Origin: Escherichia phage EJP2
Reading direction: 5' to 3' (one strand)
DNA length: 64,000 bases
Sequence record: OQ411014.1
Part shown: positions 9,973-48,655 of the stretch, one piece after another
How positions within the stretch are numbered: position 1 is the stretch's first letter
Layout of the letters: the number at the start of each line of letters is the position of its first letter
The notes under the pieces: model-generated
What the model saw: the letters and a program-made list of their open reading frames with translations, nothing else
The model's database searches: none
Told to the model about the DNA's origin: nothing
Translations under genes and position numbers: made by a program

Positions 9973-9981
9973 GGATAAGAT

Positions 9982-11079: not shown

Positions 11080-11087
11080 TACAAATG

Positions 11088-11587: not shown

Positions 11588-11589
11588 CC

Positions 11590-12930
11590 TTATGTGTTTC
11601 TAAAGCCAATCCTCCAATACCCTTGTCTATATTTGTTCATAATGGCCTTGTGCCAGCCAAACTTTGTGGTATACTTATACATTCCACTATCACTTGAGTT
11701 ATAAACATAATCAGTAATACTTGCTGGAGGGATAAGTTCAATACCTTGAGAAGTTATTCGAACAATATATTCAGGTGGGATACGATTATCCTTGTAGAAA
11801 ATATCACGTTCTGATATATTTACATAATATTGCTCCGGTATAGCTCCATTTAACTCTTGACTTTCAGTGACGAAAGCAACAATTGCCAATTGACGCTTCA
11901 TTAGTGAGTTATCAACTTCAACAATAATCTTATTCGCGGTATCATCAGAACCAATACTCAGTACTGTACCTTTGATTGCGGATGTGTCTTCAATTCCTCG
12001 TTGGAATTTGATGAACATTTCCTTCTTATCGAAGCTCGGTTCCAAATATTTGAGGTATATAGGCCATGAGAAGATTTTGTTATTGGCACTCAGCTTGTTA
12101 AGAGATGAATTCACAAGTGTTAGCTCATATTTTGACGTGGATGCACCTGGCTGTGTGATTTCATCCACCAATATACACATGTTTTTCGGTGTGAAGACAT
12201 CAACAATCGGTTCAGACCAGTTAGTTAGTTCAATATCGAGTTCGTCTTTCGCGTTATGCACGTTAGTAACGATTTGACTAATGAGTTTTGGTTTTTCAAC
12301 TGTTCCTGGAAGAGAAAACCACACAGTACTTTTGAATGATAAGGTCATTATGTCCATATCAGTGTCTGTGCCTTGTGGCATAGCACGAGAACTGAACTGA
12401 CAATCAATCAATTCAACATCAGTTGCTGAAGTCCAGTCTAATGGGTTCTCCGAAAGCTGTAAAGTTATCGATGGACTGAATAAAGTTGTGATTTGTTCGA
12501 ACAATTCCATTTTATTAGTTAATGTAGTTGTCCAAATGTTCAAATCAAACACAAATGTCCACGGAACAGGGTTGTATCTGGTAATCAAGTACTGTTCATC
12601 CAGTTCTTTTGTGTACTCGTTCTGTGCAGGGGACTTATTAGTCCCCATAATCACCTGTTCAGCCACTGGTGAGCGAATAGAATTGCGTTCCATCTTCAAT
12701 GACTGTACACTTATAGTCATCATTGGAGCAGTTGGTACTGTGTTTTCTGAACCTCCACTGATAATATACGCAGCTAAACGTGAAATATCAGCGTATCTGC
12801 AAGGTACACCACGATAAACTGGTAGACCTGCATCGTCAATTGAGTGTAGTACTTTGAAATCACCAAAAACTCTTATTAAGTGTTTCAGTACTCGTCTGAA
12901 TTGACCGTCATAATAATATTCTACTTTCAT
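11590..12930 (-). CDS. Hypothetical protein (446 aa), probably virion-associated by operon context
   Basis: Long ORF in the leftward late operon, immediately upstream of the Nudix gene. Confidence 0.5.
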   Translation of the reverse strand: MKVEYYYDGQFRRVLKHLIRVFGDFKVLHSIDDAGLPVYRGVPCRYADISRLAAYIISGGSENTVPTAPMMTISVQSLKMERNSIRSPVAEQVIMGTNKSPAQNEYTKELDEQYLITRYNPVPWTFVFDLNIWTTTLTNKMELFEQITTLFSPSITLQLSENPLDWTSATDVELIDCQFSSRAMPQGTDTDMDIMTLSFKSTVWFSLPGTVEKPKLISQIVTNVHNAKDELDIELTNWSEPIVDVFTPKNMCILVDEITQPGASTSKYELTLVNSSLNKLSANNKIFSWPIYLKYLEPSFDKKEMFIKFQRGIEDTSAIKGTVLSIGSDDTANKIIVEVDNSLMKRQLAIVAFVTESQELNGAIPEQYYVNISERDIFYKDNRIPPEYIVRITSQGIELIPPASITDYVYNSSDSGMYKYTTKFGWHKAIMNKYRQGYWRIGFRNT

Positions 12931-12938
12931 GTTGTTCC

Positions 12939-14435: not shown

Positions 14436-14466
14436 TTTGAATCTCCAAAAAGAAATCGTATAAATG

Positions 14467-14474
14467 TATTTATT
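14467..14474 (-). promoter_or_regulatory. Late-promoter-like motif AATAAATA on minus strand (499-aa gene)
   Basis: Plus-strand TATTTATT, ~32 bp upstream of start 14435; back-to-back with the promoter at 14478. Confidence 0.35.
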
Positions 14475-14477
14475 TTT

Positions 14478-14507
14478 TTGAGACAAATGCAAAAGATGTG
14501 ATATAAT
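14478..14507 (+). promoter_or_regulatory. Sigma70-type early/middle promoter (TTGAGA-N18-TGATATAAT) for the ClpA-like gene
   Basis: -35-like TTGAGA 14478-14483, extended -10 TGATATAAT 14499-14507; one of five copies of a conserved cassette. Confidence 0.7.
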
Positions 14508-14554
14508 AGATTATGAAGCACATAAAACTACTTTTTTTTTAGGAGAGAATTATA

Positions 14555-16840
14555 ATGAGTCAAACTTTCATTCAAATCTTCACCGATACTGAAAACTTTG
14601 CACAGAGTCTTGGTCATCGTTATATGTCTATCGACCATCTTTCAGTAACCGTGCTACAAATTCCTAGCATCATTGAAGCGTTGAATGCAATGTCTCTCGA
14701 TGCGGAACAAATCCAAGAACGTGTTCACCAGTACTTGAAAAGTGCTAACATTCCAGAGATTCCACAGAGTACGATGGAAGCTATTGGTGAAGATCGTGCG
14801 GCTATGAGCATTCAAATGTCTCGTATCATGGCTGAACTAAGCAAGAAAGCTGTACTGGAACAATTGAAGACTGATGATTATACTATTGCTCCGTACTTTG
14901 TACTTTTTGAATGTTTGTCCTTCCCTAATACTGCAATTGAAGCAGTACTGGAAGAATTAGGAACAACTCGTACTGAAGTGGCTCGTTCTCTTCAGAAACA
15001 TGTTGAACAAGTTGAACCATCAGTAGAACTAACTAAAACTTTCCAAGAACCGACTAAAGAGGGTAAACGAGTGGCACAACAACCACAGTCCAAGTCTAAG
15101 GGTATTGAAGATTACACCACTAACCTGACAGAAAAAGCTCGTAATGGCAATCTTGACCCGATGATTGGTCGTACCAAGGAACTCCAGAACCTAATCGAGA
15201 TTGTTTCTCGTAAGAATAAAAAGAATGCGTGTCTGACTGGTGAACCTGGTGTTGGTAAAACTCAAATCATTGATGGTTTGGCTCAAGCAATCGCTGATGG
15301 GAATGTTCCAGAGCATTTACAAGGTATTGAGATTCTTTCTCTGAACATGGGTGCGTTTACTGCGGGTACTAAGTATCGTGGTGAGTTCGAAGAACGTGTT
15401 GATGATTTCTTGAAAGAATTGAAAACTCGTGATAACGTAATCGTATTCATTGACGAACTACATACTATCATGGGTGCAGGTTCCAACAGTTCTGGTTCTA
15501 TGGATATGAGTAATCTTATCAAACCAGCACTATCAAGTGGTGAAATCCGTGTTATCGGTGCAACTACTTACGAAGAATATCGTAAACACATTGAGAAAGA
15601 TGGTGCACTAGCACGTCGCTTCATGAAAGTTGATATTGTTGAACCTTCTTTCAGTGAAACTCGTGAAATTGTACTCGGCGTTACCAGTACTTATGAGAAG
15701 TTCCATGAAGTTTCTTTCAGTGAAGCAGCAATTGAAGCAGTACTGAACCTGTCTAACAAGTTCATGAAAAACAAGCGTTTCCCTGACAAAGCACTAGATC
15801 TTCTTGATGCAGCAGCGGCAATGAAACGTACTCGTGGTGAAGACGATAATATCGTTCAAGAATCACACATCCAAGAAGTTGTGGCACGCATTGCTAACCT
15901 GGATATTTCTGTGGTAGCATGTAACGAAAGCGAACGCATGTCTAACCTACCAAATGCACTACGTTCTCGTGTATTCGGTCAAGATGATGCAGTTGAAAAA
16001 CTGGTTGATAACGTAATGGTTGCTCGTGCAGGTCTACGTGATAGTGCGTCAGTACAGGGTGCGTTCATTTTCCAAGGGCCGTCCGGTACTGGTAAAACTG
16101 AAATCGCTAAAGCACTTGCTGATGCAATGGGTTCTGAACTAATTCGTTTCGATATGTCAGAGTTTGCTCAAGAGCATACTGTATCCAAACTAATCGGTTC
16201 CCCTCCAGGTTATGTTGGTCACGAATCCGGCAACGGTCTACTGTTAGACAAAGTAGAACAATTCCCGAACTGTGTCCTGCTTCTGGATGAAATTGAAAAG
16301 GCTCACCCTAACATTCTACTAACCTTTCTACAGGTTCTAGATGAAGGTCGTCTAACTGGCTCTCAAGGTAAAACAGTATTCTTCAATAACGTAACTGTTA
16401 TCATGACTACTAACCTAGGTGCTAAACAAGCAGAAGTTCGTGCAATCGGTGGTTCCGGTGGCGACGATGGTATGGACAAAGCACTAAAAGCGTTCCTCCG
16501 TCCAGAGTTTCTAAACCGTATCGACAGTGTTGTGAAATTCAAAGAACTATCTGCTGAGGCAATTGATTCTGTAATCACCAAGTTCATGGCTTCTCTGGAA
16601 GAAACCGTTGCACCTAAAGGTGTTACCGTGAAACTAACTACCGAAGCACGTGCATGGTTGGCTAAGAATGGTGTTCAGGTTGGTATGGGTGCACGTCCAA
16701 TGAAACGTACCATCGAAAAACACATTCGTGTCCCACTAGCTAAAGAAATGCTTTGTGGTTCTCTACAAAATGGTGGTTCAATTACGTTTGACGTGATTGA
16801 TGGAACTCTAGGTGTAAAATCCAAACGTTCTAAAAAATAA
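14555..16840 (+). CDS. ClpA-like class-I AAA+ unfoldase (761 aa)
   Basis: Clp N-domain; NBD1 Walker A GEPGVGKTQI and Walker B VIVFIDELH; NBD2 Walker A GPSGTGKTEIAKALA, Walker B VLLLDEIEKAHPNI, LIGSPPGYVGH, sensor-2 GARPMKRTIE; no ClpB-type middle domain; own sigma70-type promoter and terminator. Confidence 0.9.
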   Translation: MSQTFIQIFTDTENFAQSLGHRYMSIDHLSVTVLQIPSIIEALNAMSLDAEQIQERVHQYLKSANIPEIPQSTMEAIGEDRAAMSIQMSRIMAELSKKAVLEQLKTDDYTIAPYFVLFECLSFPNTAIEAVLEELGTTRTEVARSLQKHVEQVEPSVELTKTFQEPTKEGKRVAQQPQSKSKGIEDYTTNLTEKARNGNLDPMIGRTKELQNLIEIVSRKNKKNACLTGEPGVGKTQIIDGLAQAIADGNVPEHLQGIEILSLNMGAFTAGTKYRGEFEERVDDFLKELKTRDNVIVFIDELHTIMGAGSNSSGSMDMSNLIKPALSSGEIRVIGATTYEEYRKHIEKDGALARRFMKVDIVEPSFSETREIVLGVTSTYEKFHEVSFSEAAIEAVLNLSNKFMKNKRFPDKALDLLDAAAAMKRTRGEDDNIVQESHIQEVVARIANLDISVVACNESERMSNLPNALRSRVFGQDDAVEKLVDNVMVARAGLRDSASVQGAFIFQGPSGTGKTEIAKALADAMGSELIRFDMSEFAQEHTVSKLIGSPPGYVGHESGNGLLLDKVEQFPNCVLLLDEIEKAHPNILLTFLQVLDEGRLTGSQGKTVFFNNVTVIMTTNLGAKQAEVRAIGGSGGDDGMDKALKAFLRPEFLNRIDSVVKFKELSAEAIDSVITKFMASLEETVAPKGVTVKLTTEARAWLAKNGVQVGMGARPMKRTIEKHIRVPLAKEMLCGSLQNGGSITFDVIDGTLGVKSKRSKK

Positions 16841-16846
16841 GAAAAT

Positions 16847-16875
16847 AAAAAGGAGCCTTTCGGCTCCTTTTTTTT
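16847..16875. terminator. Bidirectional hairpin terminator after the ClpA-like gene
   Basis: AAAAAGGAGCC-TTTC-GGCTCCTTTTTTTT; also terminates the convergent 3337-aa gene. Confidence 0.75.
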
Positions 16876-19800
16876 ATTTGATTAATCCAATAAGAATTAC
16901 AGGTGCAATATCCAAACTATCAGAATAAGTACTCAATGGGATTGGTTCATAACCATCACCGTATACTGCAATTTCATTAGTGTTACCTAAATTCAATCCA
17001 GTACTGGTATACGTTACATCCTTTTCGTAATAATTCTGAACAGTACCGTTATAAGCTCGAACAACGAAGTTGTTTTTGCGAACAAGCATTTGTTCTGCAT
17101 TAGATAGGATAATATCGTCAGGTACAACACCAGGCATTGTAGCGATACCATTTTCATAGGTCATGGTGCTTGCCATCTTCGGCTGACTTACGTGAGTGAA
17201 GCTGTCAAACATTGACTTATAAACAACAGTAACAGTACTGTTAGTGTTAATATACACACCATCAACTAGTGGTTTACTATAGATCCAAGAACCATTGTTA
17301 GCAGTAGGGTTAATTTCAGCTACATCGTATTCAAATACTGAAATTTCCAACGCGTCGGTCATTTTAGTACGAACCAATTCACTTAGTACACCTTTACCGT
17401 ACACTGGTAGGTAATATCCATTATCAACCACAGTTCCATCTTCTAGTGTTTGTGTCTCATTAGTACTGTACCATACATCATAGTCATTGGTAGTTAGTTC
17501 TGGTTCATAATTACCACCAATTAAGGAAGTGTCATAGAACACATCATAATCTAGAGCATCGACTCTGTAAGAACGGTTATTAGTATAACGAGTAATTCCA
17601 CCAGCACTAAACTCTGGGTCATTGAAAGATGTAACTCTAACAATGTTGATACTAGTTGGTTTGTTCTGGTTGTAAAGTGATTCATCAGTACTGTTATAAG
17701 TACTAGTGAAAGTTAATCCACCAATAGTTACAGTATTACCAGATACCGAAGTTACTTTAAACAACTTAGGACGATTAGCATCTTTAATTGTTGCTACACT
17801 CAATACAGTTTTCCAAGAACCATCGTTAATAGCGACTGCGTAATCTGAATTGTCTGGGACAAATACAGCTACCGTTTCGCCAACAACGAAATCATTATCA
17901 CCGTCAAGTTCAACAACACCACTTACTGAAGTTACGTTCTTAATACGATATGAATATTGAATTTCATTCTTTTCCAAAATGCTTCTATTCATGTATTCAA
18001 GAGCAACATCATAACGTGGAATACTTACAAGGGCTTCTGAGCGATTATATGGGTTTTGTACGATATAACCTTCAATATTAAAGTTACCTTGATCACGTAA
18101 TTGTGTCTGTACTGAAGTATCAAATCCATATCCATCAACTGTGAATCTTAGCTGTGCCATATCACGTTTAGATGGGTTAAGTTCTGAAATGTCTACAAAT
18201 ACAGGATCGTTAGTACTGTTAGCGACACCAACAACGGAGTTAATAATAGTTTTAGTTTGTGATTCTAGAGCTAAGTTATCGAATGCGTTTTTATCATCAA
18301 AGAATACTTCTTTATTCAAGCCTGACATGATTTGTAAGAAATCACTATATAGTGGGTTCTTATCATCTTCTGGAACGTCATCAAGTGATGGTTGGCTTAG
18401 GCGAACCATATCCCCATCAGTGATATACACTTCTTCCATATATTCTTCTATGCCAACATTCGAAGGAATGCTATAATCTTTTCCTGGAGTAGTTTCACTC
18501 ATTAGGAAAACATATTTCCTAGGCATCAACACTACTGCATAAGCATCAACATCAAGATTCTCTAATACTTTCTCTGCTGCACTATACGGGTCAGTTTCAT
18601 CAGGATTATAAGTCCCTCTAAGTGCTGATAGAACGTGTACTGCATCAGTATAGAAACGATTAGATTCTGGATTATCATCAGTTTCAGGGATTACATATTT
18701 CCATGTATATAAACCGTATTCATATTCCATGTACTCTAGAATCTCAATGTGAGAGAATCCAGGGTTTGCTTCCTTAACTTGATCATAAATCAAATCATAC
18801 ATTGGTTTGCTGTAAGAGATATAACCATAGTTTTCACCATTGCTTGCACTAAATCCAAACGGCAACCTTGTGCTTGGGTTATCACTCAGTACTAGACCTT
18901 TAAATGGACAACCTACTTCAGAACCAATAGTTTCATCAGATTTGGAAGTTGTTAGCTTCAAACGGTTTGAAAGCGTGTTGTACTGAACATAGTTGCGTAC
19001 TTCACTAACCGATTCAGATTTCTCTTCTGCTTCTGCAATTACACGATTAAGTGTAGCTGTAAATTCATCAGATGCTTCAACATCATTAATTAGTGTTGCA
19101 TACATTTGGTCTAAACCATATTTCAAACCACTACTAATATTCATGTTCGGATAGTACTGCGTAATACCGTTCATGATTAATGTTTCCAACTCAGCATTAT
19201 TAATTTCAGGGAAAGTATATGCATAACGCTGGAGCATGTAGTGGGAGCCTTTTACAAGGAAGTCACCAGTATTAGATTGGTATTTCTTGTTCACGTTTTC
19301 TAGTGTTGTTATATCTGCCATATCGGAAGATGGTTTGCACTGGAAGTTGTCAAAGTCAAGAATAACATCAATCTCTTGGAAACGGCGGTTTGGTAGTACG
19401 AAGTTATTTGGTAGTGAGCCTACGATTTCCCACTTCTGACTTACATCGTTGAATTGAGCATATTCGTAATCCCAAATATCTTTTTGTGTTTTAACCCAAG
19501 CACCATCAACATAGATATAACCGTTAGGATCTAAATCGTTTAATAGACCGTTGATTTCATCTTCATCAGATGTCTTCTGCTCTATTTGTGAACGGATTTT
19601 AGTTCTGTATGGTTTCACTTCTTCAAAGTACTGTACGATTTCATTTATTAAATTACCATCAGTAGTTGATCTTTGTTGTAGTGATTGGTCTAGACCAATA
19701 ATATAAATGTAAGAGGTTTTGAATACCCAGTCCACGACTTTCTGCTCAGTGTGTACGTACTTAACCATGTCAAATACTACAGTACTTTGTACAGAGTTGA

Positions 19801-22800
19801 ATGAACCTTTGAGTAGTGCTAATGCTGCACGAACGTTTTTCTCATTATTCGTTAATGCACCATCGCTGTTGTATTGTGAGTAGTTGTTATAAAGAACATT
19901 GTTCAATTGTACAGTGCTCTTCTCACGACCAACTGCTACCCATTGAACTTGACCACGTGATTCAGTTTTTTCATATAATGTCCAGACACCATCGGCATCG
20001 GTAATACGAATCAAATCACCAATCTGGTAGTTTTTAGTGTTAGCAATTTGAATGCTTGTTTCTTCGGTATATTCTGATTCTTCATCAAAACCAACACTAT
20101 ACCAATCAGCATAATCCCAGTAGGTTGTCATATCTAATGAAGTACCAAGCTGATCAATATAGTCAGTTTGCTTAATCATAGTATGTTGACCTTCACCACG
20201 ACTCTCTAGAGTGATAGTTACCGCAGTACCAGAAGTACTTGGGCTATTCATCAAGTGAATGTAACCGTTGTCGTCGTAATGCACAAAGTACACACTAGTA
20301 CGGTTTAGTGGTGCTGGTAATGTACCATTAGTATTAACCAGTACTGCGTCATTCTCTACAAATTTGTTTTCATTTGTGGTGATAACCAATTCGTTGTTAT
20401 AAGTTAGTACTTTAAATCCAACTTCGTTCGGGTTCACAGCGTCAGTCTTCTTAAAGAAGATATCATCCATTACTACAGTGTCAGTTGTCATGTTAATATG
20501 CTTGTACACATTGTTTGCTGAATCAACAAACGTCCTACGAGCTTCTATAACGTCCATAAACCATGTTTTGTTTGCACCTAGACCCAAGTCAGTACTTGGA
20601 TAAGATAACTCAACCACGTTGCCGTTTAGGAGGGTTTCTTGAGACTCCAAAGAGTTCCATAGAGAATTCCAAATAGCTGGGTTGAAGTTGTATTCTTCAC
20701 CTTCTTTACAAAGTTGATACTGTTCATGTTTAATAACATCATCATTATTTTCTTTGTAAGAAACAGTCAATATACTCTTATCATCGTTAATGTCGTGCTG
20801 CATATTAGATAGAATAAAAGAATTCTCATCTACTGGGGAGAACCAAGGAACTCCGAGTACTGAAGGATCAGCAATAATGCGAGCAATCTCATTACAAGAT
20901 TTGGTACGATGCTTAACATGTGGAGTATAGATTGTATCTTTAACCCAGAAGTAATACATTGGCACATAAGTGTTAGTACTAGCATCATATTCAACAAAAT
21001 AAGAATAGTTTTCAGTAACTGCTGTACCGGATGGTAGGTAAGTGGTCTGGCCTTTATTTTGTTTTTGTTGTTCAGTGCAATACTGATCCCAGTTATATGG
21101 TTCTACTGGCGATTTAACCCATTCGTACACATCAATACTACCATGTGGAAGGATTTTACCCCAATTATAACGCTTATATTCTAGAGTCTTATTTACATCG
21201 ACGTTCCCATTAGCATCAAGGATTGGACGAGTATAATCCATGAAGAATGCAGAAGAAGTATCCCACCAAACTTCACCAACTTTATCAGAACCCCAAGCTA
21301 GTAATGTTTCACCATCACTATTGTAGGTTGCTGGGTCACGAGTAGAGGTATATGAAACGTTTGACATTGCCACACCAGGGATAATACCATTGATTGGGTC
21401 ATATGTGTTAATATACATCTCAACAACGTTAGTCATGGAGTTGTAGGTACTTGGGCGGTCGAACAACGAACTGTTAGGTGCTAAGTACTCATATTTTTTC
21501 TGAACGTATGCATCTTTCGCTGCTTTAGTACTGAAACGTGGAACGTATTTGTACATTACAGGTTCTGCACCACTGAAATCAAAATCTACAGTACTGTCGA
21601 ATGCAACAACTATAGTATTTGCAGTAACACCATAGAATTGTGTTTCTTCACGTAGGAAATCAGGCATATAACCGGACTCATCAACGAAGAAGTAAGTATC
21701 ACCATTACTTAGTGTAGATGAAGAACTTAATTCTAGTGTTACTTTCTGTGCTGCGTATTGGTCATCAGTAATAATTGGAGTAATTTTCTTCAAAGTGATA
21801 TTGGTTTTAACAATATCATAGATATTCCAGTTATCATTAGAATCCTGAAGAACCCATACAGACGATGGTAGTGTATTGTAATCGGAAGTATACTTAGAAC
21901 GGTCTTCATAAGCAGTTTGTAGGTCTAGAGTAGTGAATGACACTTCATCTAGAGTTACAGGGCCGATATTTGGCAACTGAATGTTGTCAGATGCACCTTT
22001 ACGCATTGGGAAAGAGAACAAACCATGTGGACGAGTAATCCAACGTGGGTCTACACCTGTTTTACCAAAATAAACGATGTTATTTGCAGTACTGTCCACA
22101 GTTGCATTCTGGTCGAATGTAACCAATTGTGGTTGTTGAGCAAATTCGTTGTTAATTAGTTGGAACTGTAGGTTCTTTTTGCCATATACGTTGCCATATT
22201 CACCGATTTTGAAAGCCCACTCTTGTAGTGCTTTGTAACCTTCGGTATTATAGGTTTTTGATACACGTAGAACACGTTCGAGTACTTGATTAGTACCTTT
22301 GTCACGGATGAAGCCTTTATAGAAATCAACGCGGGCTGGTTCTGATGTGATCATTTCGTTTAAGTAACTTCTGGACTGGTATCCAATTAAATGATTCGCT
22401 AGGGAACGCAATTGAACATCAGATACTGGATTTTCAGTGTCATAATAGTGTCTAAAGTCATCTACTAGTTTTTCAAAGTCAGGTAGTGTGCCAGTTTCGA
22501 GGATAATAAAGCCAGGTGCTTCCAAACGACCATTCCATGAGCCAGTTACATAACCGTACATACGAATCAATTCTTGAATTGAACCATAAGTTGGAATATA
22601 GATGTTATCACCAAAAATAGTTTTATCATCAAACACGATAGCATGTTCATAAGCGATTAAGCTCAAACGAATAAGAGCAATACGCTTGTTGTATTCTTCT
22701 AAACTACGAACAGTGATGATGTTACCGATACGTGCAGTTTCAATTTCATACGGACGAATACCTGTATTATTATCATCTAGTAGAGTCCATAGACCACCAC

Positions 22801-25800
22801 TATATTGTGCAACTGATTCAACAGAACCAAAAGACGCACCGAATTTAACACTTTTAGTACTTGGAGAACAAGAAATATATTCACCACGAGCTAGAGCAGT
22901 CTGACTCCAGTTCAAATAATCCTTCGCAATTTGATTCCAGTTTAGAGTGTTGCCGTTCTCGTCAGTTTCTTCGAAAATAAACCCAACACGTTCCAAATAT
23001 TCACCATAAGCACACAAGAAAGTGTAAACTTCTTGGAAAGAATTCAGTACTGTACCGTATTCAATACTTTGAACTTTATCAGTGTACTCATTGTAATGAA
23101 CTACTGTACGATTACCTTCACGAATAGTAACACGCTTACCATTACGGTTAGGAGTTAAGTATTTGAAGGATGCACCAACTAGATCATAACCAGTAATCTG
23201 ATATCCAGTGCCGTTCCATGTGATATCAACAGCACTCATTGATTCTTCACGGATGGAAGAGCTACGAACTAGACCGATATGTTGGTTTTCTTGAGAAATT
23301 AGACCGAATGTATCAGAATAAAAACTCAATTGGTCTTCTTTACTGAATCCACCAAGTTTATGACCCACATTAATATGTGAACTACGTAAAACGTCACCGT
23401 ACTTAGTAGTAATATCCATTTGTTTGTACTGTAGGTGATCAGTTATGAACATTTGGTATCCTAGGATACGGCTATTGTTCTCATTGTTCACTAGTGTAGT
23501 ACTGTTTAGGTTCAAACGTTGGTTGGTTTCACCAAATAGGAACTGTTCTTTACCACGATAAACTGTTTTAAGAGTACTACCACGAGTATCATAGAAATAG
23601 TTTGCAAACTGTGCTGGTTTAGCACGATATAGTAGTAGAGCTTCATCATATGGGAACATTGCAGTGTTGCGGTAAGTGAATTCAATATCACCCATGTCAC
23701 CATAAGACCACGGTTCTGCACGATGATCAAGGGAACCAGCCACTAAACCTAGAACTTCTGGAGCAATCAGTTCAAATGTGCGAATTTCTTCACCATCTGC
23801 TGTGAAATTACCAGTACCTTTAATAACGAATGGCTGTTTACCAAAACGTTTGTATTTTGCATAAGTTCCTTTGTTCTTACCATATAGAATTGTACCAGTA
23901 CTAGCGTCACCTTTAATACTACCAACATCCCATAGACCACTTGGTACTAATTGGTTGTTTTCATCAATAACTTCAGCTTCATACACGTATACAACTTCAG
24001 TTGGGTCTTCACCAATACGAATTTTGGTTGGTTCATATTCTTGGTTCCACCAAGATGGGCGTTGAGCAAAACCTAACATTTCCCACGGGTGGGTTGCTGG
24101 GCGATATGTACCGAACATGTCACTATAAATTGCTCTCCATGAGCCACGTGCTGGAATATCGGTAACAACGCCATCAACAACATAAGTTGTTCCTTTGTAG
24201 TTCCAAGTTAACCAGTTATTTGCATCATAATCATGTGTACTGTTATCAATACCGTTAGTTGCGATGAAGTTAGTGTAACCACGTAGTAGAAGTGTTTGCT
24301 TCTCGTCACGAGTATAGTCAGTTTCAGTAAAATAAGGAGTCGGGAATAGATCACTCTGAACAAGTTCAGGTACATAATCAATATCTTTGAAATCATTATC
24401 AATACTGTTGAAAATACGGTTTTCTAGTTCGTAAATCACATCATCCATACGACCTACACCATTCAGTACTTTATACGCCTTGGTAATTGTACCAGTATGG
24501 CTTACGTTATAACAACCTAGGTCACGACCAGCATACATATAAGTCGCTTTCTGTGGAGCGTACGCTTTTAGAATACCAATAAACTGTGGAGTCGGTGGAA
24601 TGAAGGCACGAATGTTAGAACTGGAACTACCCATCGCATCAATGAAGAATGGGAAAGTATTATTCTTACCAACGTTAATATTATTAAGAATTGCGTCAAC
24701 AATATTAGATGCACTGTTGGAAGTGAATGCAGATGGATCTTCATTGTACATATTAACCATTTGAGTATTGAATTTGTTCATGAAACGGAAGTATTCAGAT
24801 TGCATAAATTCAATTGCAGCAAATAGGTCAATATTTTCATTCGCTGTGTTAATCATTAGTGGAAGCATAGATGCTTCGTTCTGGATAATCTTAGTACCGA
24901 CAGAGTTATCAACTAGACCTTTAGCAAGACGTTCTTCGTAGTCGTTAAAATCATTTACTGTACCAGTAGTGATGTTACGTTGAATAATTTCTTGGAAATG
25001 TGGTGTATATAGACTTTGATCAATATAAGTGATAAAATCATTATACGGGTTGTTCTGTAGGTTGATTGGAATTTCATAAGAACCCAAGTTAGTATCTGGT
25101 GTTTGTACAGGACTGTAAGTTCTGATTTCAACAATGCTATCATCGGTTAGTTTGATAGAACTATCTAGAGTTATAGATTCAACAAGACCATTTTTATCCA
25201 ATTTAGTACTGAACTTTGTGGTTTCTTCTGTACCAACACGCACATAAAGTACATCTGTGCTTGATGATAGGTTGACACGTTGAGCTAGTTCAAATGTGTG
25301 GTTAAAAAGTTCAGATGGAACGTAGTCATTACCAGCTTCACGATGCCAGTCCATAAAAGTACTGTTATCTGCTTTGTAATATTTGAATGTTGCATCAATA
25401 TCCATTACATAAGCGTACATATTTTCAATTGGATTTTGGAAATTATTCATCTCTTGTACAGTACTGAATACATTGTACATAGAGGTTTTGGTCATAGCAG
25501 GAACTTGACGAACATACTGTTTGGTAAATTCATCGCTACGATCCCAGTCTGATTTTAGATTTACTGAACCGTCAGAACCAATTACGTTATAGTAATACAA
25601 ACCAGAAATTTCAGTAGTTGCTCCAACTTTATCATAATCATAACGAGTACTCTGAATGAAGTTCTCGAAAACATAATAGTTGTAAGAGTTCAATTCAACG
25701 TTAGTGTTATAGATTTTATTGTAGTTGTAGTCAAAGTTAACTTTAAGGCCAAATAGTGGGGAACCTTTAAAAGAACTACTTGGGTAAATTTGAGGATCGT

Positions 25801-34157: not shown

Positions 34158-36489
34158 TGCTTGCTGTTCCTTCATCATAATCAGTAGTTTGGTCACGACG
34201 ACGTAGTGAACGGATCACTAATCCACCAGTTAATTGCTGGGTGAACTTACCAGAACCATCAAATTCACTCACAACACTGTTTACACGGTAAATTGTTTGC
34301 GTGAAGATGGTTGGTGTGTCGATTTCCAAAATACCTGTGTTGTTACTAATAGCAACAACGGGTTTAATATTCAATAGTAGATATGCTTCACTGTCAATGT
34401 AGTTTGCGAAGTGAATATCGTCATCACCGACAGCCATTTCTTGGTCATTTACAACTCTATCAAGGTATTGTAGGTAAGAGTAGTCACTCCATCCCAACCA
34501 GTACGGATCACCAATAACCTTCATGTCCAATTTACCTAAGAATGCACGGTTATAGTAGTTGTCACGCATCAAACGACGATCCATTTCGTATTCAGTACTG
34601 TTATCGTTTACAGAACCACTGGTTGCTGTTACGATGTTTGTTGGTTCCAACGGAATTGACTTAACTTGTCCATTATCAGAGCCAATACCTTCAGTACCTG
34701 CATAAGTTAGGTCATATTCATCACGATAGTCTTCAATATATTCATTTACACGAGCGTGAACGTCCAAACGTGTCTCAAGTTGTTCCTTGACACCTTCAAT
34801 TGATAAACCTAGTTTATCAGAAGCGGCTGCGGTTGCATCACGTATGAATTGTTGCTCTTCATCTGATAGTGCACGACCTTCACGCTCATCTTTCTCCAAC
34901 TGAACCTTCTTTGACCACATTGCAGTTACGTTTGTGGTTACTGACGTATCATATCGAACATCATCGAGTACTAATATTTCAGCATTGTGAGTACCTAAAC
35001 GGTTGTCGAAGTCGATTTGTGTTGTTGGGTTACGTGTTACTGCTAAGTTGAATCCTTGGTCGAATTTAATATCCAGATTAAGAATTTCTTGGTTAAGACC
35101 TGTAAACTGATAGTCATAACGTTTAATATTCAATTTAGGAGTATTGTCATTTGGGTCTGCGAATTTATCTGCATTCTCAAAGAAGTATTCAATGTTGAAT
35201 TTGTCTTGCTTTAAGTCATCTTCACTAGTTACATCACCAATTTTATATTTTACAATATAGAAATCGTTTTTATAGACTGATGTATTACGAATATTATCAA
35301 ATCCGACATAACGACGAACTGGAATGATATTCACGAACTGACGTTTGCGGTCAGTACTTTCATGTAGAGGAACACAACAGTCCAGTACATCATCTATTGC
35401 ACGAGAGAATGGCACGTTAGCAGCCCAAGAGAAGTTCTTAGCACCTTGTTGACCATTCTTAGTATTACCAACTTCAGTACTTTGTTTAGCATCATAGTTG
35501 ATAGTCATAGTTGCTAGTTCAGAAGGAACATGAATAGTAAAGAATTCATTGTTTGCAAATTCTGGATATTTAAATGTTAAATAACCATACTGTTCTTCTG
35601 CTTGTTCATTTAGTTTATCCTGAATGCTTTGAAGAAAGTCACCAAAGGTTGCTGATGTGCATGTATATGGTTCTAGCATTGTCCAGTCTTTGTTATCAAC
35701 CAATGCAGTACGGTTTGCCACTAAATTCATGTCGTACTTAACAGTACCACCAGATTCAGTTGCACGACCTTTAATATCGTTAATCCTCACACACCATTTA
35801 CGGTTCAATCCAGTTATAGTTTCTGGTTTACCAGTATTTTGGTCATATCCAACGAAGTTCAATTCTAATACCATTGGCACGTCCATGAATTTTTGATATC
35901 CAAGACGGTTAGACATTACAACTATCTCATCCCATAAACTCATACCTGAGTCTTCTGAAATTTCAATAGTACATTCGTTGAATGAGAAGTTTGAAGTACT
36001 GGCTGGTGTCGCTGGTGCTACACTTTTGATTTTTACGTTAGTAATTGAATATCTTCCAGTTACCCCAGATTGTGCTATAATATATTTTGTAATTTGTTGG
36101 TTCGGTGATGACCAAAACAACGCATATTCTTCGGGTTCCATACTGTACAAAGAAAAGTTCCAAGTTACATTATGATACTTCAAAAGAATATTTTCATATG
36201 GTAGTACTATGTCGTTTAGGTTCCAGTCATTCTTAACTGACAAGTCATCAGTACTTCTAGCGTTAGTATTCTTTGGTCTTTCATCATTCGGTTTAGCACT
36301 AAATGGGTTAGAAATATTTGGCATTGCACCTTTAACCACATTAGTGACTTCTCCTTTGACAGTACTTTTTACTTTATCGATTGAAGGAATCTTACCTTTA
36401 ATTTCGGCAACTTTCTCTTGAGCAACTTCAACTGGTCTGTTGAGTTGGTCAACTGTAGCTGTAACGATTCCTTGTACATTATTTGCCAT
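34144..36489 (-). CDS. Hypothetical baseplate-associated protein (781 aa)
   Basis: Long ORF immediately upstream of, and overlapping, the gp5-like gene; RBS AAAGGA. Confidence 0.5.
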   Translation of the reverse strand: MANNVQGIVTATVDQLNRPVEVAQEKVAEIKGKIPSIDKVKSTVKGEVTNVVKGAMPNISNPFSAKPNDERPKNTNARSTDDLSVKNDWNLNDIVLPYENILLKYHNVTWNFSLYSMEPEEYALFWSSPNQQITKYIIAQSGVTGRYSITNVKIKSVAPATPASTSNFSFNECTIEISEDSGMSLWDEIVVMSNRLGYQKFMDVPMVLELNFVGYDQNTGKPETITGLNRKWCVRINDIKGRATESGGTVKYDMNLVANRTALVDNKDWTMLEPYTCTSATFGDFLQSIQDKLNEQAEEQYGYLTFKYPEFANNEFFTIHVPSELATMTINYDAKQSTEVGNTKNGQQGAKNFSWAANVPFSRAIDDVLDCCVPLHESTDRKRQFVNIIPVRRYVGFDNIRNTSVYKNDFYIVKYKIGDVTSEDDLKQDKFNIEYFFENADKFADPNDNTPKLNIKRYDYQFTGLNQEILNLDIKFDQGFNLAVTRNPTTQIDFDNRLGTHNAEILVLDDVRYDTSVTTNVTAMWSKKVQLEKDEREGRALSDEEQQFIRDATAAASDKLGLSIEGVKEQLETRLDVHARVNEYIEDYRDEYDLTYAGTEGIGSDNGQVKSIPLEPTNIVTATSGSVNDNSTEYEMDRRLMRDNYYNRAFLGKLDMKVIGDPYWLGWSDYSYLQYLDRVVNDQEMAVGDDDIHFANYIDSEAYLLLNIKPVVAISNNTGILEIDTPTIFTQTIYRVNSVVSEFDGSGKFTQQLTGGLVIRSLRRRDQTTDYDEGTASNGDQ

Positions 36490-41716: not shown

Positions 41717-41742
41717 AAAGGGAGCTTTATGCTCCCTTTTTT
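41717..41742. terminator. Bidirectional terminator between the gp46-like and endoVII-like genes
   Basis: AAAGGGAGC-TTTAT-GCTCCCTTTTTT. Confidence 0.7.
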
Positions 41743-42218
41743 ATTAATCTCATATCTAACTTACCTTCCTTGATGAGTGTCCTCGCTTGGTTGGCTCTTT
41801 TCTTAACATTAGTCTCTGGTTCAGTACCTAATGAACTCAGTACTTCACATTGCTGCTTTGCTGGTAGTGCTTTAAACTTCTTCACATCCACTGTAAGAGC
41901 CGTATGGTGAATAACTTGCTCTTCTGGTGGTATATTGTTATGATGCTCTAGATAGTCTGCTAGATTGCGTAGAACTTCGTATAATGGCTTATCAGTCAAG
42001 TGCCTTACACACCTATTAAATGAGTTCTGTACGCGTCCCTCCCAGCCGTTAACCTCATTCTGTAGTACTCCCCTACAGTGCTGGTTATCTTGGTGGTAGT
42101 GGTCTAATACGGGCTTTGTGATGGGTATTTGAAGGATAGGATCAATACCACCTTGTGCCTTTAGTAGTTCCTTACGATATTTTGCTGCATCGTCAGGGTT
42201 TTTAAGTCTTCTTTTCAT
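41727..42218 (-). CDS. Endonuclease VII-like His-Me finger nuclease (163 aa)
   Basis: LDHYHQDNQHCRGVLQNEVNGWEG...FNR resembles the T4 endo VII core HLDHDHELNGPKAGKVRGLLCNLCNAAEG..FNR. Confidence 0.5.
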   Translation of the reverse strand: MKRRLKNPDDAAKYRKELLKAQGGIDPILQIPITKPVLDHYHQDNQHCRGVLQNEVNGWEGRVQNSFNRCVRHLTDKPLYEVLRNLADYLEHHNNIPPEEQVIHHTALTVDVKKFKALPAKQQCEVLSSLGTEPETNVKKRANQARTLIKEGKLDMRLIKKGA

Positions 42219-42263
42219 ATCTACACCTTTTGGACAATGATTCTAGTTACTTTATTTAGTTTA

Positions 42264-42464
42264 AGTACTATCATTGTCATCCACCAGCATTCAGTACTTC
42301 TATTATGCATGTTCTGTGTATACAGGAATCACAAAAGTACTAATGACCTTTCTGAAATCCTTGCAGTACTAAGGATGTCCAAAACTCTTGGAGAATGTAC
42401 TTAGTTGCAGTACATAGAGAAGAGTACTATGCTCACGTAATGAAATTATTTTCGAAAAAGTACT
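42264..42464. repeat. Cluster of six AGTACT(A) palindromic hexamers in non-coding DNA
   Basis: AGTACT at 42264, 42293, 42336, 42365, 42423 and 42459; five are AGTACTA; between the endoVII-like start and the promoter at 42471. Confidence 0.6.
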
Positions 42465-42470
42465 AGAAAA

Positions 42471-42500
42471 ATGAGATGCAAACATAAAATGTGATATAAT
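42471..42500 (+). promoter_or_regulatory. Sigma70-type promoter firing rightward into the ORF-free locus
   Basis: ATGAGA 42471-42476, TGATATAAT 42492-42500; no ORF with RBS downstream for ~700 bp. Confidence 0.65.
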
Positions 42501-43040
42501 ATAAGTACAAGTTCATAAGGTCAGTTTTTACTGATACAGATTAAACCCAATTCACTCGAAAATGTAGAGGATGGATGAGTAGACTTATGACTACGTAGTG
42601 CAAAAGAAACCCGTTAGGAGATGGCATAGTTTGTACCACCCACGGCAATGTGGCACTTTAAATGAACGCGATAAGCAGACAGACGTTCACTAGATAGACA
42701 TATAAGGCTACCTTACCACACTTGCTAAGGGAGTTCAGTTCAGAACTTGTTTTGAGCTTGAACAGCATTAAGATTCGATTGTATGGATTTTAATGTATGC
42801 GTACTAAGACTACGACCGTTGCACATGACCGTGATAGAGAGAAACAGAGCAACCCGCTTTCGTTCTGACTTGTTCAGAAATTCACGATACAATAATTCCG
42901 ATGCTATCAGCGTCAAGCAATATTTCAGATCCTTAATTGGGTCTTTTTTATTGTCTTCATTCCCCTGCGGGGGGATGAAATTGCCTCAACAAATCTCGTC
43001 AAGTATTAAAGTATTAATTAGTTCTTAATAATTAAATTAT

Positions 43041-43105
43041 TAAATGAATTGAGATTCATTAGAGTGAAACGAAGTGAACGATAAATGAATTGAAGATTCT
43101 TAGAC
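43041..43105. repeat. AT-rich direct repeats (iteron-like) in the ORF-free locus
   Basis: TAAATGAATTGAGATTCATTAGAG (43041-43064) and TAAATGAATTGAAGATTCTTAGAC (43082-43105), a third AATGAATT near 43164 and tandem AGTATTAA x2 at ~42998-43013, within a very AT-rich stretch 42990-43180. Confidence 0.55.
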
Positions 43106-43179
43106 AATCGAAGATTGGCTAATCAAATACTTTCTCCTAAAGAATGATTCAATAATAATTCTTAATGAATTTTAAATAC

Positions 43180-43205
43180 AAAAAAAACCAGCAACAATGT
43201 GCTGG
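43180..43205 (-). terminator. Minus-strand terminator after the 83-aa gene
   Basis: CCAGCA-ACAATG-TGCTGG hairpin preceded on plus by AAAAAAAA (U-run on the minus-strand RNA). Confidence 0.6.
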
Positions 43206-43457
43206 CTATTGATTCATTTTCTTCATTCTTTTGTTATACGACTTCACCATTAAATCCCTTGTCTGTACTGGCATATTCAGTAATGACTCATAGGAAGTGT
43301 TCTCTATAGCAACAGCAGCATCCATCAATGACACCTGAATGTCATTGACATTAAACTCCATATCACTTAGAATCTCTTTTATTTCTTCCGGTTCACTAAT
43401 GAGAAGTCTAGTCCGAAAAAATGGGATGGGTCGTATTTTAGTCCAGTCAATTCCCAC
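43206..43457 (-). CDS. Small hypothetical protein; start uncertain (83 aa from first ATG, ~51 aa from MEFNV)
   Basis: The longest ORF overlaps the upstream 288-aa gene by 79 nt in a different frame; the internal start at 43361 removes the overlap. Confidence 0.3.
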   Translation of the reverse strand: MGIDWTKIRPIPFFRTRLLISEPEEIKEILSDMEFNVNDIQVSLMDAAVAIENTSYESLLNMPVQTRDLMVKSYNKRMKKMNQ

Positions 43458-44245
43458 TGATGATTACAGTTACTACATTCAACATCCATAGTATGACTGA
43501 TACCTACATCAAATACACTATCAGACTTTTCACTAATGATTTTGAGATCATTCTTGTTCAAAGTACCAAGCCATTCAGAAATAAATTCTGGTTCAGTTAC
43601 TTCTTCATCATTAGGAGTGACTATCTTCGCAATACTACTGCAAATCATATCATAGTTCAGTTGAGTCATTTTCTCAAAAATGTCACTGAAAATTTCCATT
43701 CTTTCTTTCTCTTCCAAATCAGCACTCATATCAATAACACGAGAACGACTTTGTTGAGCAAACATACGCTCACCAAAAGCAGAATGCTCTTCCCATGTAT
43801 GTGGTCTAAAGTATACTGTTAGTCCATTTTCCATTAGTACTACAGGCTCTTCAGTAAATGAAGTAGTAGTATTGAGTAGATAGTTCAAATCACGACTAAA
43901 TCCACCCACATGTTCACACTCTGGACATGTAACATTGATATCATATGATTCATCTTTAGTAGCTAATTTAATAGCAATAAGTAGTTGCTCTACGTCGTTT
44001 ACATAGAGTTTAGAAGCATCAAGTACTGAAGGGACACAGTTCTCAATTACTTTAGCAATGGCATCACCACCAATTAGTGCATCAGCAGTATTAAGTAGAA
44101 TTTCATCACGTGCAGAACGAGCACATACACCACACTTAGTATTACTTACTACACCTTCAGGGTACTTGATTACATCGTTTGAAACTAGTTTAGTGAACAG
44201 TACTTCAATTTTACTGTACTGTGACAAAGGGTTCATCTTGCTCAT
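43379..44245 (-). CDS. Hypothetical Cys-rich protein (288 aa) with three CxxC motifs, possible hub or assembly protein
   Basis: ORF diverging from the tape-measure-like gene; CGVC, CPEC, CSNC motifs. Confidence 0.5.
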   Translation of the reverse strand: MSKMNPLSQYSKIEVLFTKLVSNDVIKYPEGVVSNTKCGVCARSARDEILLNTADALIGGDAIAKVIENCVPSVLDASKLYVNDVEQLLIAIKLATKDESYDINVTCPECEHVGGFSRDLNYLLNTTTSFTEEPVVLMENGLTVYFRPHTWEEHSAFGERMFAQQSRSRVIDMSADLEEKERMEIFSDIFEKMTQLNYDMICSSIAKIVTPNDEEVTEPEFISEWLGTLNKNDLKIISEKSDSVFDVGISHTMDVECSNCNHQWELTGLKYDPSHFFGLDFSLVNRKK

Positions 44246-48261: not shown

Positions 48262-48262
48262 G

Positions 48263-48270
48263 AATAAATA
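48263..48270 (+). promoter_or_regulatory. Late-promoter-like motif AATAAATA (upstream of the 76-aa gene)
   Basis: 7/8 match, ~57 bp upstream of ATG 48327; weakest of the plus-strand set. Confidence 0.25.
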
Positions 48271-48285
48271 ACTATGATTAGATAA

Positions 48286-48307
48286 TTCACCCCTTCAGTG
48301 GGGTGAA
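48286..48307 (+). terminator. Hairpin after the portal gene (weak T-tract)
   Basis: TTCACCCC-TTCAG-TGGGGTGAA; only a short T-run, so possibly an attenuator or RNA-stability element. Confidence 0.4.
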
Positions 48308-48326
48308 TAACATTTAGGAGTGAACA

Positions 48327-48557
48327 ATGTTAGATGAAATCTTTGAATCAAGAGACGATTCTATGTACGACCCTGAAGATGATCAGACTGTTTATAAACT
48401 AACTGATACCAGAAAACCTAAATTGACGCTTCAGATTTTAAATAATCTAAGAAAATATCGTGAATTTAAGAAGAATGAAGAGGCACGTCGTGCTTCTGTT
48501 GTATCTGTTGTGTATGCAACACCATCTGAACCATCCGGTGGAAGTGGAATGATGTAA
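48327..48557 (+). CDS. Small prohead-associated protein (76 aa), gp67-like by position
   Basis: Small ORF between the portal and acidic core genes, as in the T4 20-67-68-21-22-23 order; followed by a strong terminator. Confidence 0.4.
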   Translation: MLDEIFESRDDSMYDPEDDQTVYKLTDTRKPKLTLQILNNLRKYREFKKNEEARRASVVSVVYATPSEPSGGSGMM

Positions 48558-48590
48558 AAGAGCGATTTTAAACCCCTTTTAAAAATCGCT
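48554..48590 (+). terminator. Rho-independent terminator after the 76-aa gene
   Basis: AGCGATTTTAAA-CCCCTTTT-AAAAATCGCT followed by TTTTTTT. Confidence 0.65.
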
Positions 48591-48596
48591 TTTTTT

Positions 48597-48604
48597 AAAA
48601 AGTA
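48597..48604 (+). promoter_or_regulatory. T4-type late promoter motif TATAAATA (acidic core protein)
   Basis: Exact TATAAATA ~52 bp upstream of ATG 48656; extended TATAAATAATCACATACTGAAA resembles the motif upstream of the capsid gene. Confidence 0.55.
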
Positions 48605-48655
48605 TAAATAATCACATACTGAAATATAAAATTTTGTATATCTTTGGAGGATATC

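Follow-up and report, generated by a model that had tools for sequence, protein, structure and literature searches.

A predicted gene for a large, structured non-coding RNA in Escherichia phage EJP2 and its paralogs in related jumbo phages

In a stretch of 64,000 nucleotides from Escherichia phage EJP2 (record OQ411014.1; hereafter, the window), the interval 42471-43124 of the plus strand likely forms a gene of its own, encoding a large structured non-coding RNA that we rate as new, both as a previously undescribed family of large multi-pseudoknot RNAs and as an RNA class. An initial annotation made from the letters of the window had set the surrounding region (42219-43205) apart as a locus without open reading frames (ORFs), proposing a replication origin of the type found in phage T4 or, alternatively, a structured RNA; of the two, it is the RNA for which conservation and covariation give strong support. 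The conserved unit comprises a promoter (42471-42500) and a transcript of about 620 nt (about 42507-43124, plus strand), and is longer than had been assumed.

In the mechanism that we propose, the host RNA polymerase would start at TGAGAT-N13-TGATATAAT, near position 42507 as judged from the promoter, and would either stop at an internal terminator-like hairpin followed by six U residues (U6, 42927-42949), giving a transcript of about 440 nt, or read through to GGCUAAUC, ending at 43124, with a product of about 620 nt. Comparative analysis shows that the RNA folds into at least 18 helices, four of them of the pseudoknot or tertiary kind; a 3' hairpin domain stands apart, and many of the unpaired nucleotides are invariant. 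The functional product would be the folded RNA rather than DNA repeats or a message.

Conservation and covariation of the locus

Homologs were sought by blastn in 50,697 phage records with the locus as query, and full-length copies were confirmed with an nhmmer profile hidden Markov model (HMM). The search matched 61 jumbo phage records, in which the core (42534-43000) is 68-90% identical; the matches start at 42484-42556 and end within the AT-rich stretch or at the 3' end of the query. The carriers, more than 60 in number, belong to Asteriusvirus, Mimasvirus, Eneladusvirus and Alcyoneusvirus or are unclassified Erwinia, Salmonella and Klebsiella phages, and the unit is 58-90% identical among them. 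What is conserved in related phages is the RNA unit; the segment with AGTACT repeats upstream of the promoter is not part of it.

The alignment used for comparative folding (A2) holds 39 distinct copies in 707 columns. RNAalifold applied to these sequences gave 69 pairs, compensatory changes being present at 37, and a scan for covarying columns revealed four more helices, which cross the nested structure. The curated model has 77 pairs in 18 helices, including the four pseudoknot or tertiary helices, and 98.4% of its cells are standard-paired, against 35-45% when the partners are slid by 1-3 columns. Comparative folding against the loci of related phages had been suggested as a check, and 48 of the 77 pairs turned out to be compensated by changes on both sides (9-17 in the slid controls), with a covariation score of 0.462 (0.05-0.07 in the same controls). 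Pairs are thus kept by compensatory change well above the controls, as in structured non-coding RNAs in general. Furthermore, two positions are G·U in all 39 sequences and several pairs alternate between C-G and U-G; this identifies the plus strand as the RNA, because on the complementary strand A·C mismatches would stand in place of the invariant G·U pairs. Folding of the window RNA gave a minimum free energy of -158.3 kcal/mol, with z = -3.24 relative to shuffled sequences.

The substitutions at the RNA locus show no codon periodicity (chi-square P = 0.15), the indels between orthologs are of 1, 2, 4, 5, 7, 8, 11 and 14 nt, mostly not multiples of three, and each frame contains 10-22 stop codons. 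The description of the locus as ORF-free stands for 42219-42782, which is without any ORF of at least 80 aa, and an 81-aa ORF at 42783-43028, which falls within the conserved RNA, is spurious. It was also said to be the only long non-coding stretch in the window, and this holds because the sole other gap of at least 300 nt away from the window ends (48262-48643, the second-longest interval without an ORF of at least 80 aa) is ordinary: it contains a 76-aa ORF (48327-48557) preceded by a Shine-Dalgarno-like AGGAG and is flanked by inverted repeats.

The promoter noted in the initial annotation is present, reading ATGAGA-18-TATAAT with an upstream TG, and is indeed one of five: on the plus strand of the window, TGAGA(C/T)-N13-TGATATAAT sites occur with TGATATAAT starting at 14499, 37607, 42492, 56891 and 60846. 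TGnTATAAT is unchanged in 17 of 17 aligned copies of the RNA. With its non-canonical -35 (TGAGAT/TGAAACG class), the promoter falls into one class with the 'divergent RpoD-like' promoters of phage CBB, which have the -35 element TGAAACG and are mostly found before DNA-synthesis genes (PMC5259590); the RNA is not mentioned in that genome paper. The RNA gene of Klebsiella phage KP13-7 (Alcyoneusvirus) lies directly 3' of the gene for a phage RpoS-like sigma factor (L235:222-1118, 1208-1669), and its promoter is near the sigma-70 consensus (TTGAACA-17-TGATATAAT).

Structural elements and limits of the transcript

The features of the locus, in the order of their positions in the window, are the following.

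42219-42470, no strand: lineage-specific spacer from the endonuclease VII start codon to the RNA promoter, with six AGTACT, outside the conserved element
42471-42500, plus strand: promoter with -35-like TGAGAT and extended -10 TG-A-TATAAT (10 of 12 matches, TG present)
42507-43124, plus strand: predicted large structured non-coding RNA gene, supported by conservation, covariation and the lack of a coding signal
42520-42535, plus strand: 5' hairpin GUCAGU/ACUGAU with loop UUUU; caps in homologs often GNRA
42547-42574, plus strand: two-step hairpin CCA/UGG and CUC/GAG with near-invariant loop CGAAAAUGUAG (helices 1 and 2)
42597-42657, plus strand: domain closed by AGUGC/GCACU (42597-42601 with 42653-42657; helix 4)
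42611-42614 with 42642-42645, plus strand: inner, nearly invariant helix CCGU/ACGG (helix 5), varying by G·U only, in two pairs
42648-42650 with 42699-42701, plus strand: tertiary or pseudoknot helix AUG/CAU (helix 6)
42663-42667 with 42685-42689, plus strand: hairpin UGAAC/GUUCA (helix 7); 5 of 5 pairs covary, with up to four pair types
42675-42676 with 42724-42725, plus strand: loop GC paired with GC (helix 8); 2 of 2 pairs covary
42770-42777 with 42784-42791, plus strand: hairpin with pseudoknotting loop AUUGUA (42778-42783)
42778-42783 with 42888-42893, plus strand: pseudoknot AUUGUA/UACAAU (helix 11); 99.6% paired, 5 of 6 pairs covary
42818-42822 with 42849-42853, plus strand: H-type pseudoknot GUUGC/GCAAC within the most conserved core (helices 13 and 15)
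42830-42834 with 42882-42886, plus strand: helix CGUGA/UCACG, enclosing a variable hairpin (42864-42867 with 42875-42878)
42900-42914, plus strand: hairpin GAUGC-UAUCA-GCGUC, first copy of the repeated AUC..CGUCA motif; moderate support
42927-42949, plus strand: intrinsic-terminator-like hairpin AGAUCC-UUAAUU-GGGUCU (42927-42944), then U6; 5 of 5 pairs covary
42958-43003, plus strand: G/C hairpin CAUUCCCC-UGCG-GGGGGAUG (helix 18), then highly conserved ACAAAUCUCGUCA
43046-43099, plus strand: 3' long hairpin; GAAUU/GAUUC forms its outer stem (43046-43050 with 43095-43099), and the apical loop holds the conserved ACGAAGUGA
43054-43060 with 43084-43090, plus strand: inner stem AUUCAUU/AAUGAAU of the 3' long hairpin; stem sequence differs in homologs
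43105-43124, plus strand: terminal hairpin CAAUC-GAA-GAUUG (43105-43117), then GGCUAAUC; last conserved block
43186-43207, minus strand: hairpin CCAGCA..UGCUGG, bidirectional, with the U8 tail in the minus-strand direction; kept in orthologous loci

The stem of the 5' hairpin is wholly different among the homologs in A2, yet remains self-complementary (GGUACGAAAGUACU, GAGGCGAAAGCCUC and CAAGG..CCUUG). In helices 1 and 2 both sides have changed in 5 of the 6 pairs (e.g., CUG/CAG vs CCA/UGG), and helices 4 and 6 are 100% paired, the former in three types (AGUGC/GCACU, UGAGC/GCUCA and ACAGC/GCUGU), the latter with the variants AUG/CAU, AUA/UAU and ACA/UGU. An invariant UAAGGGA(G) at 42726-42733 follows directly 3' of the GC that is the partner in helix 8. 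Two pairings that would join distant parts of the RNA were considered and rejected. The 5' end could pair with the variable region after UAAGGGAGUU, with an 8-bp match in the window (ACAAGUUC/GAACUUGU); however, over the 39 sequences the best complementarity is 6.46 against 6.59 in a mismatched control. A closing helix UGA/UCA or GAUGAG/CUCGUC (42575 with 42996) has sides that are invariant or uncompensated, and was left out of the model.

Helix 11, which occurs also as UUGUAU/AUACAA, UCGAAU/AUUCGA, UCAUGU/ACAUGA and, in Alcyoneusvirus, CUUGAAU/AUUCAAG, has the strongest support among the pseudoknots of the model; it might instead be a kissing contact between two molecules. In the core pseudoknot, the GCAAC at 42849-42853 sits in the loop of GAGAG/CUUUC (42837-42841 with 42857-42861), and the pairing is kept through the variants GUUGC/GCAAC, GUUAC/GUAAC and GUUGU/ACAAC, with GGACG/CGUUC in KP13-7. 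In the helix CGUGA/UCACG (helix 14) 3 of 5 pairs covary, and in the variable hairpin that it encloses (helix 16) 4 of 4; homologs bear long inserts or GNRA caps there. The hairpin at 42900-42914 is GAUGC/GCGUC vs GACGA/UCGUC in A2, its register being shifted in copies of the 121Q type; the AUC..CGUC(A) motif occurs at 42906-42915 and again at 42993-43001. The G/C hairpin at 42958-42977 (CATTCCCC-TGCG-GGGGGATG in the DNA) is present as first described, and helix 18 varies by C to U only, giving G·U pairs, changes that again point to the plus strand as the RNA. A local helix GAUGA/UCGUC (42974-42978 with 42996-43000) is possible in RNAalifold on alignment A3, and it is nearly invariant, hence covariation is uninformative about it. 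In different paralogs a recurrent hairpin module, ~GAUC..UUUUUACAAUAUAGAUCCGUC, occupies two different variable sites (A2 columns ~355-395 and ~540-570, e.g., in L011, L012, L021 and in L002, L010, L018, L013) and does not occur in the copy of the window; it may serve as a module for binding protein or for making tertiary contacts.

Conservation goes on past the G/C hairpin through ACAAAUCUCGUCA and, after a variable AT-rich linker, resumes in a 3' domain. At the 3' long hairpin the homologs carry other stems (GUUGUUUCAGUAC/GUACAGAACAAC and GUAAAUCUC/GAGAUUUAC), and the terminal hairpin has seven variants with pairing kept in all of them, namely CAAUC/GAUUG, CAUUC/GAAUG, CAUAC/GUAUG, CUAAC/GUUAG, CUACC/GGUAG, CGUCC/GGAUG, where it is kept through a G·U, and ACAUC/GAUGU. 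The initial annotation had described this part as an AT-rich segment with ~24-bp direct repeats of the iteron type: the segment and the repeats do exist, but the latter, AAATGAATTGAGATTC (43042-43057) and AAATGAATTGAAGATTC (43083-43099), are 16-17 nt long and each contains an inner-stem arm together with a piece of the outer stem, so that they are hairpin arms and not iterons. An origin of the iteron type, as in T4 oriE or plasmid RK6 gamma, was rejected because homologs show different stems at this place and no repeated units.

The element at 42927-42949 has the make-up of an intrinsic terminator, with a 6-bp stem, three G-C pairs and TTTTTT; the T-run noted initially in front of the G/C hairpin is indeed present and belongs to this terminator-like hairpin (42927-42944) and its U6. 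It is possible that the hairpin and U6 act as an attenuator giving the isoform of about 440 nt. Some read-through is suggested, because conserved structure continues downstream; the same hairpin and U6 are missing from the cluster-1 and L017 paralogs. Beyond the RNA, the hairpin at 43186-43207 is predicted to terminate the convergent baseplate-hub operon, and it may also stop read-through of the RNA. The cluster-1 paralogs (L014, L015, L025, L031, L032, L041) have a strong hairpin and U6 within 40 nt after the promoter, which in GAP32 is annotated as a rho-independent terminator (35113-35142) immediately 3' of the -10 box, and, between the 3' domain and the genes that follow closely, a TGTATAAT box.

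Paralogs and genomic context

The record closest to the window is Erwinia phage Hallingskeid, and the group is that of the Rak2/121Q/GAP32 jumbo myophages, to whose type the family is restricted. Each record has four to five separate matching places, and the complete genomes that were checked (about 350 kb) hold four to five copies on the same strand; these paralogs are 58-70% identical to the window copy, and within the window blastn (word size 7) and nhmmer --max found no second copy besides the one at 42503-43002. Full-length paralogs including the promoter were collected by two pattern scans of IMG/VR and confirmed with the profile HMM. Four copies are found in 121Q (at about 90.3, 192.7, 247.4 and 326.6 kb), five in Yersinia phage fHe-Yen9-04 (24.5, 93.3, 174.2, 260.3 and 334.7 kb, with gaps of 69, 81, 86 and 74 kb) and four to five, at equivalent positions, in GAP32, CBB and BF. 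The copies are 55-112 kb apart, lie on one strand per record and share their order among genera. For fHe-Yen9-04, we estimate that a minimum gap of at least 69 kb would arise by chance with a probability of about 5e-4 if the genome is treated as a line, or about 0.02 if it is treated as a circle, figures to be read with the even spacing counting as effectively one evolutionary observation, the genomes being syntenic.

The duplications predate the genera, because each paralog retains its own gene neighbourhood across them. In particular, the cluster-1 copy precedes genes for a hypothetical protein, a DNA methyltransferase and a cytidyltransferase in 121Q, GAP32, Kaldavass and XbC2; the best matches in Serratia phage BF, Erwinia phage Kaldavass and Xanthomonas phage XbC2 lie in another gene context. 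The flanks differ from copy to copy, and no gene neighbour is common to all copies. DNA adenine methyltransferase genes (N6_N4_Mtase, Dam) stand one to two genes 3' of two RNA paralogs (L046:4252-5058, L192:1837-2376, L050:3786-4307, L052:3843-4385), which may be a coincidence. A divergent homolog occurs in KP13-7 (E = 4e-44), and others in metagenome contigs. No homolog was found in cellular genomes (100,044 bacterial and archaeal species, one genome each), where 37 pattern hits correspond to the chance level.

The window copy is located at a strand-switch region, bordered on one side by the endonuclease VII gene (41727-42218, minus strand) and on the other by a small ORF and a T4-type baseplate hub gene (43206-44245, minus strand; PF12322, E = 1.5e-25). 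Upstream of the promoter, the six AGTACT palindromes reported initially are all present (42264, 42293, 42336, 42365, 42423 and 42459), vs 0.68 expected at the window-wide rate (Poisson P ~8e-5 per 250 nt). AGTACT is, however, frequent everywhere: the window contains 175, against about 21 expected from base composition (8-fold), one other 1-kb bin has 9, AGTACT is the most over-represented palindrome and (C)AGTACT(G) the most over-represented 6-mer family. In related jumbo phages (loci L018, L022, L023, L026, L028, L031), the motif is 5-12-fold enriched, and in PA5oct it is not. The local cluster is therefore an enrichment of a clade-wide motif rather than a special array. Four other palindromes, AAGCTT, AGCGCT, AGGCCT and CAGCTG, have zero occurrences in the 64 kb; together with the AGTACT excess, this suggests that a site for binding or modification is used across the clade and that restriction sites are avoided.

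The segment 42219-42490 had no blastn match in the 50,697 phage records. The Hallingskeid match begins only at 42484, the AGTACT segment being missing there so that the promoter abuts the endonuclease VII gene (L001:2461-3033), and at the same site Klebsiella phage fENko-Kae01 has a 957-nt ORF (318 aa; L005:508-1464) with DUF723 and a treble-clef zinc finger, similar to homing endonucleases. Since the contents differ among the three phages (a unique 250-nt AGTACT-rich sequence in the window, nothing in Hallingskeid, an ORF in fENko-Kae01), the site between the endonuclease VII start and the promoter looks like a variable insertion point, that is, an insertion hot spot. An AGTACT array as a conserved element was ruled out, the segment being without a homolog and the motif over-represented genome-wide.

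Possible roles and comparison with known systems

Several points weigh against the interpretation of the locus as a stand-alone gene for a folded RNA, or qualify it. The 5' and 3' ends of the RNA are predicted from the promoter, the terminator and the limits of conservation; several copies meet a same-strand ORF 10-40 nt past the last conserved block and, because of this closeness, a longer transcript may begin with the RNA. In the shuffling control, the observed value was reached by none of 500 shuffles on four of five measures and by 58 of 500 for 'further pair types', and this control overstates significance, the sequences being phylogenetically related, a flaw of which the slid-partner control is free. 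Moreover, covariation cannot separate intramolecular from intermolecular pairing, and the genes flanking the copies differ between copies and are mostly of unknown function. Finally, paralogs that are fixed, evenly spaced and on the same strand would fit a cis role at least as well as a role in trans.

As for what the RNA does, our best guess is that it acts in trans, either with a protein of the phage or the host, as its scaffold or partner in a ribonucleoprotein (RNP), or as a self-assembling RNA, a view that we hold to be plausible if somewhat short of probable. Its architecture, with nested and crossing helices, peripheral helices that are GNRA-capped or bear inserts, and invariant unpaired nucleotides, resembles the pattern of RNAs that act via tertiary structure, that is, RNP scaffolds, ribozymes and self-assembling RNAs. 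If so, the paralogs would be specialised via their paralog-specific peripheral elements. That the RNA has an activity of its own, as a natural ribozyme or as an RNA-only self-assembling particle with four to five specialised paralogs, seems rather unlikely; the multi-pseudoknot core, the GNRA caps, the invariant unpaired nucleotides and the 6-7-bp pairing between a loop and a strand, which might just as well join two molecules, are typical of such RNAs and can be cited for it.

A cis-acting role at the RNA's own locus, in replication priming or in transcription processivity, is the main alternative to action in trans and, both forms taken together, is possible yet unlikely. In the first form, which on its own we consider quite unlikely, each copy would mark an origin and its transcript would prime the leading strand in cis via a persistent RNA-DNA hybrid, formed near the 3' part of the RNA (U6, G6 run and AT-rich linker 43001-43045). 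A precedent is RNA II of plasmid ColE1, a folded pre-primer of about 550 nt whose correct fold can be required for origin function. The four to five evenly spaced, same-strand copies per genome recall the at least five early origins of T4, two of which consist of a promoter and a downstream R-loop-forming element (PMC3016281). In addition, the synteny of the paralogs extends over several genera, promoters of this class stand mostly before DNA-synthesis genes in CBB (PMC5259590), and the window copy lies where gene orientation switches. However, T4 origins measure about 100 bp, have no common sequence motif and form R-loops in a sequence-independent manner, with the unwinding element right after the promoter (PMC3016281), whereas here 450-620 nt are conserved, invariant loops and pseudoknots included. 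The sequence 3' of the promoter is not AT-rich either: instead of an unwinding element, about 490 nt of structured sequence with a G+C content of 0.389 follow, and the AT-rich linker begins only at about 43001. The T4-like R-loop origin of the initial annotation, made of an AGTACTA array, a promoter and iterons, is not supported in its details by the comparison with homologs, in which the array is unconserved, no iterons are kept and the supposed iterons correspond to covarying hairpin arms. The GC skew shows no inflection at the locus beyond the effect of gene orientation (skew being a weak indicator in T4-like phages), most of the other copies lie within co-directional gene arrays, and the spacing, in syntenic genomes, counts only once.

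Less likely again is the second form, a cis-acting transcription element, namely a processive antiterminator similar to put of phage HK022 or a processed 5' leader for downstream gene arrays. Every copy is directly 3' of its own promoter, most paralogs have a same-strand ORF within 10-40 nt, and the copies divide the genome into segments of ~55-110 kb; furthermore, terminator-like hairpins and U-runs occur inside the element and yet conservation continues beyond them, implying read-through. Against this, the window copy and all its orthologs precede convergent genes and the bidirectional terminator, with no same-strand gene to regulate, the downstream genes vary among paralogs and known antitermination RNAs are 30-120 nt long, not 600.

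It is very improbable that the locus works at the DNA level only, with AGTACT, direct repeats and cruciforms as protein-binding sites and no functional RNA. The 8-fold over-representation of AGTACT, its clade-wide occurrence and its clustering here would agree with such a role, and several hairpins are DNA palindromes able to bind dimeric proteins; but the AGTACT segment is unconserved, long-range and pseudoknot covariation over 50-110 nt is unexplained by DNA-binding sites, the invariant G·U pairs are strand-specific and each copy has the invariant promoter at the proper place. A set of small protein-coding genes, as suggested by the one to four hypothetical ORFs of 30-96 codons that GenBank annotators placed over the RNA (7t3, Hallingskeid, ph0011, fENko-Kae01, 121Q gene 516) and by the 81-aa ORF of the window itself, can be dismissed, as the annotated ORFs vary in position and strand from genome to genome, the locus lacks codon periodicity, shows frame-breaking indels even between close orthologs and has many stops in each frame, and its substitutions compensate base pairs; these hypothetical-protein ORFs are very probably false gene calls.

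Large intricate RNAs are rare, and most are ancient machines (ribosomal RNA, RNase P, group I and II introns, tmRNA) or ornate RNAs such as OLE, GOLLD, ROOL and raiA. The RNA class described here is found in easily cultured phages (121Q, PBECO4, phAPEC6, GAP32, CBB, Serratia BF, fHe-Yen9-04 and Klebsiella phages similar to Rak2) and, being carried by culturable coliphages and their relatives, is open to genetics, RNA-seq, structure probing and cryo-electron microscopy. Its evenly spaced paralogs are unusual in themselves and offer a clean contrast between action in trans, be it as an RNP, a ribozyme or an assembly, and a role tied to position, in the initiation of replication or in long-range transcription of the genome, and the latter, if true, would bear on how jumbo phages start and organise replication. 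In practical terms, the annotation of more than 60 GenBank phage records could be corrected, at four to five loci each.

The covariance-model search that had been suggested as a check was performed with the 4227 models of Rfam 15, which include RNase P, tmRNA, 6S, group I and II introns, GOLLD, ROOL, HEARO, OLE, raiA, hammerhead and pRNA, and no family matched the window at the gathering threshold. A permissive scan of 42100-43300 (E up to 10) returned noise, the best hit being a eukaryotic microRNA with 25 bits against a gathering threshold of 43, and a scan of 11 homologous loci gave no match inside the RNA. ARAGORN predicted no tRNA or tmRNA gene in the window, in agreement with the initial failure to find a tRNA-like cloverleaf, and none in 28 loci bearing copies. 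Partial resemblances were rejected: GAUGAG-stem-CGAA(G) at 42575-42597 recalls a hammerhead, but the C3/U4 equivalents vary and some copies have GUUGAG or AAUGAG, and the likeness of AGACUAC and ACAGA..ACCCG..CUU to group I introns and RNase P was taken to be a coincidence, with no model match and the required pairings absent. No description of the RNA was found in the full-text literature searched.

Among the known systems, the T4 origins oriF (uvsY) and oriG (gene 34) share with the locus several loci per genome, a -10 of the sigma-70 type and, as predicted here, a promoter-driven untranslated transcript and perhaps a phage-specific promoter class, and differ from it in that here 450-620 nt are conserved, with covarying pseudoknots. 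ColE1 RNA II is comparable as a folded transcript of similar length. The pRNA of phage phi29, which multimerises through loop-loop pairing, and the put RNA of HK022, which acts in cis on RNA polymerase, are likewise phage-encoded and act through structure; however, they are 70-175 nt long, single-copy and sequence-unrelated, and neither had an Rfam match here. A closer parallel in size is offered by ncRNA001-004 of PA5oct, a jumbo phage that is a distant relation within the same broad group; these RNAs are defined by RNA-seq, ORF-free and 236-619 nt long, two of them each accounting for up to ~5% of the phage reads (PMC7318152). The family profile found no homology to ncRNA001 and ncRNA002 in PA5oct 7,000-24,000 (nhmmer --max).

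With ROOL and GOLLD the predicted RNA shares a size class of at least 500 nt, many helices and pseudoknots, presence in phages and a transcription unit of its own. ROOL and GOLLD are often near tRNA genes and come from other host groups, whereas the 28 loci have no adjacent tRNA genes, the RNA matches neither covariance model even at permissive E, and four to five diverged paralogs occur per genome. ROOL and GOLLD are reported to form RNA-only homo-oligomeric assemblies (bioRxiv 10.1101/2024.12.08.627333), and the window RNA could form similar ones, which is conceivable because covariation does not tell pairs within a molecule from pairs between molecules.

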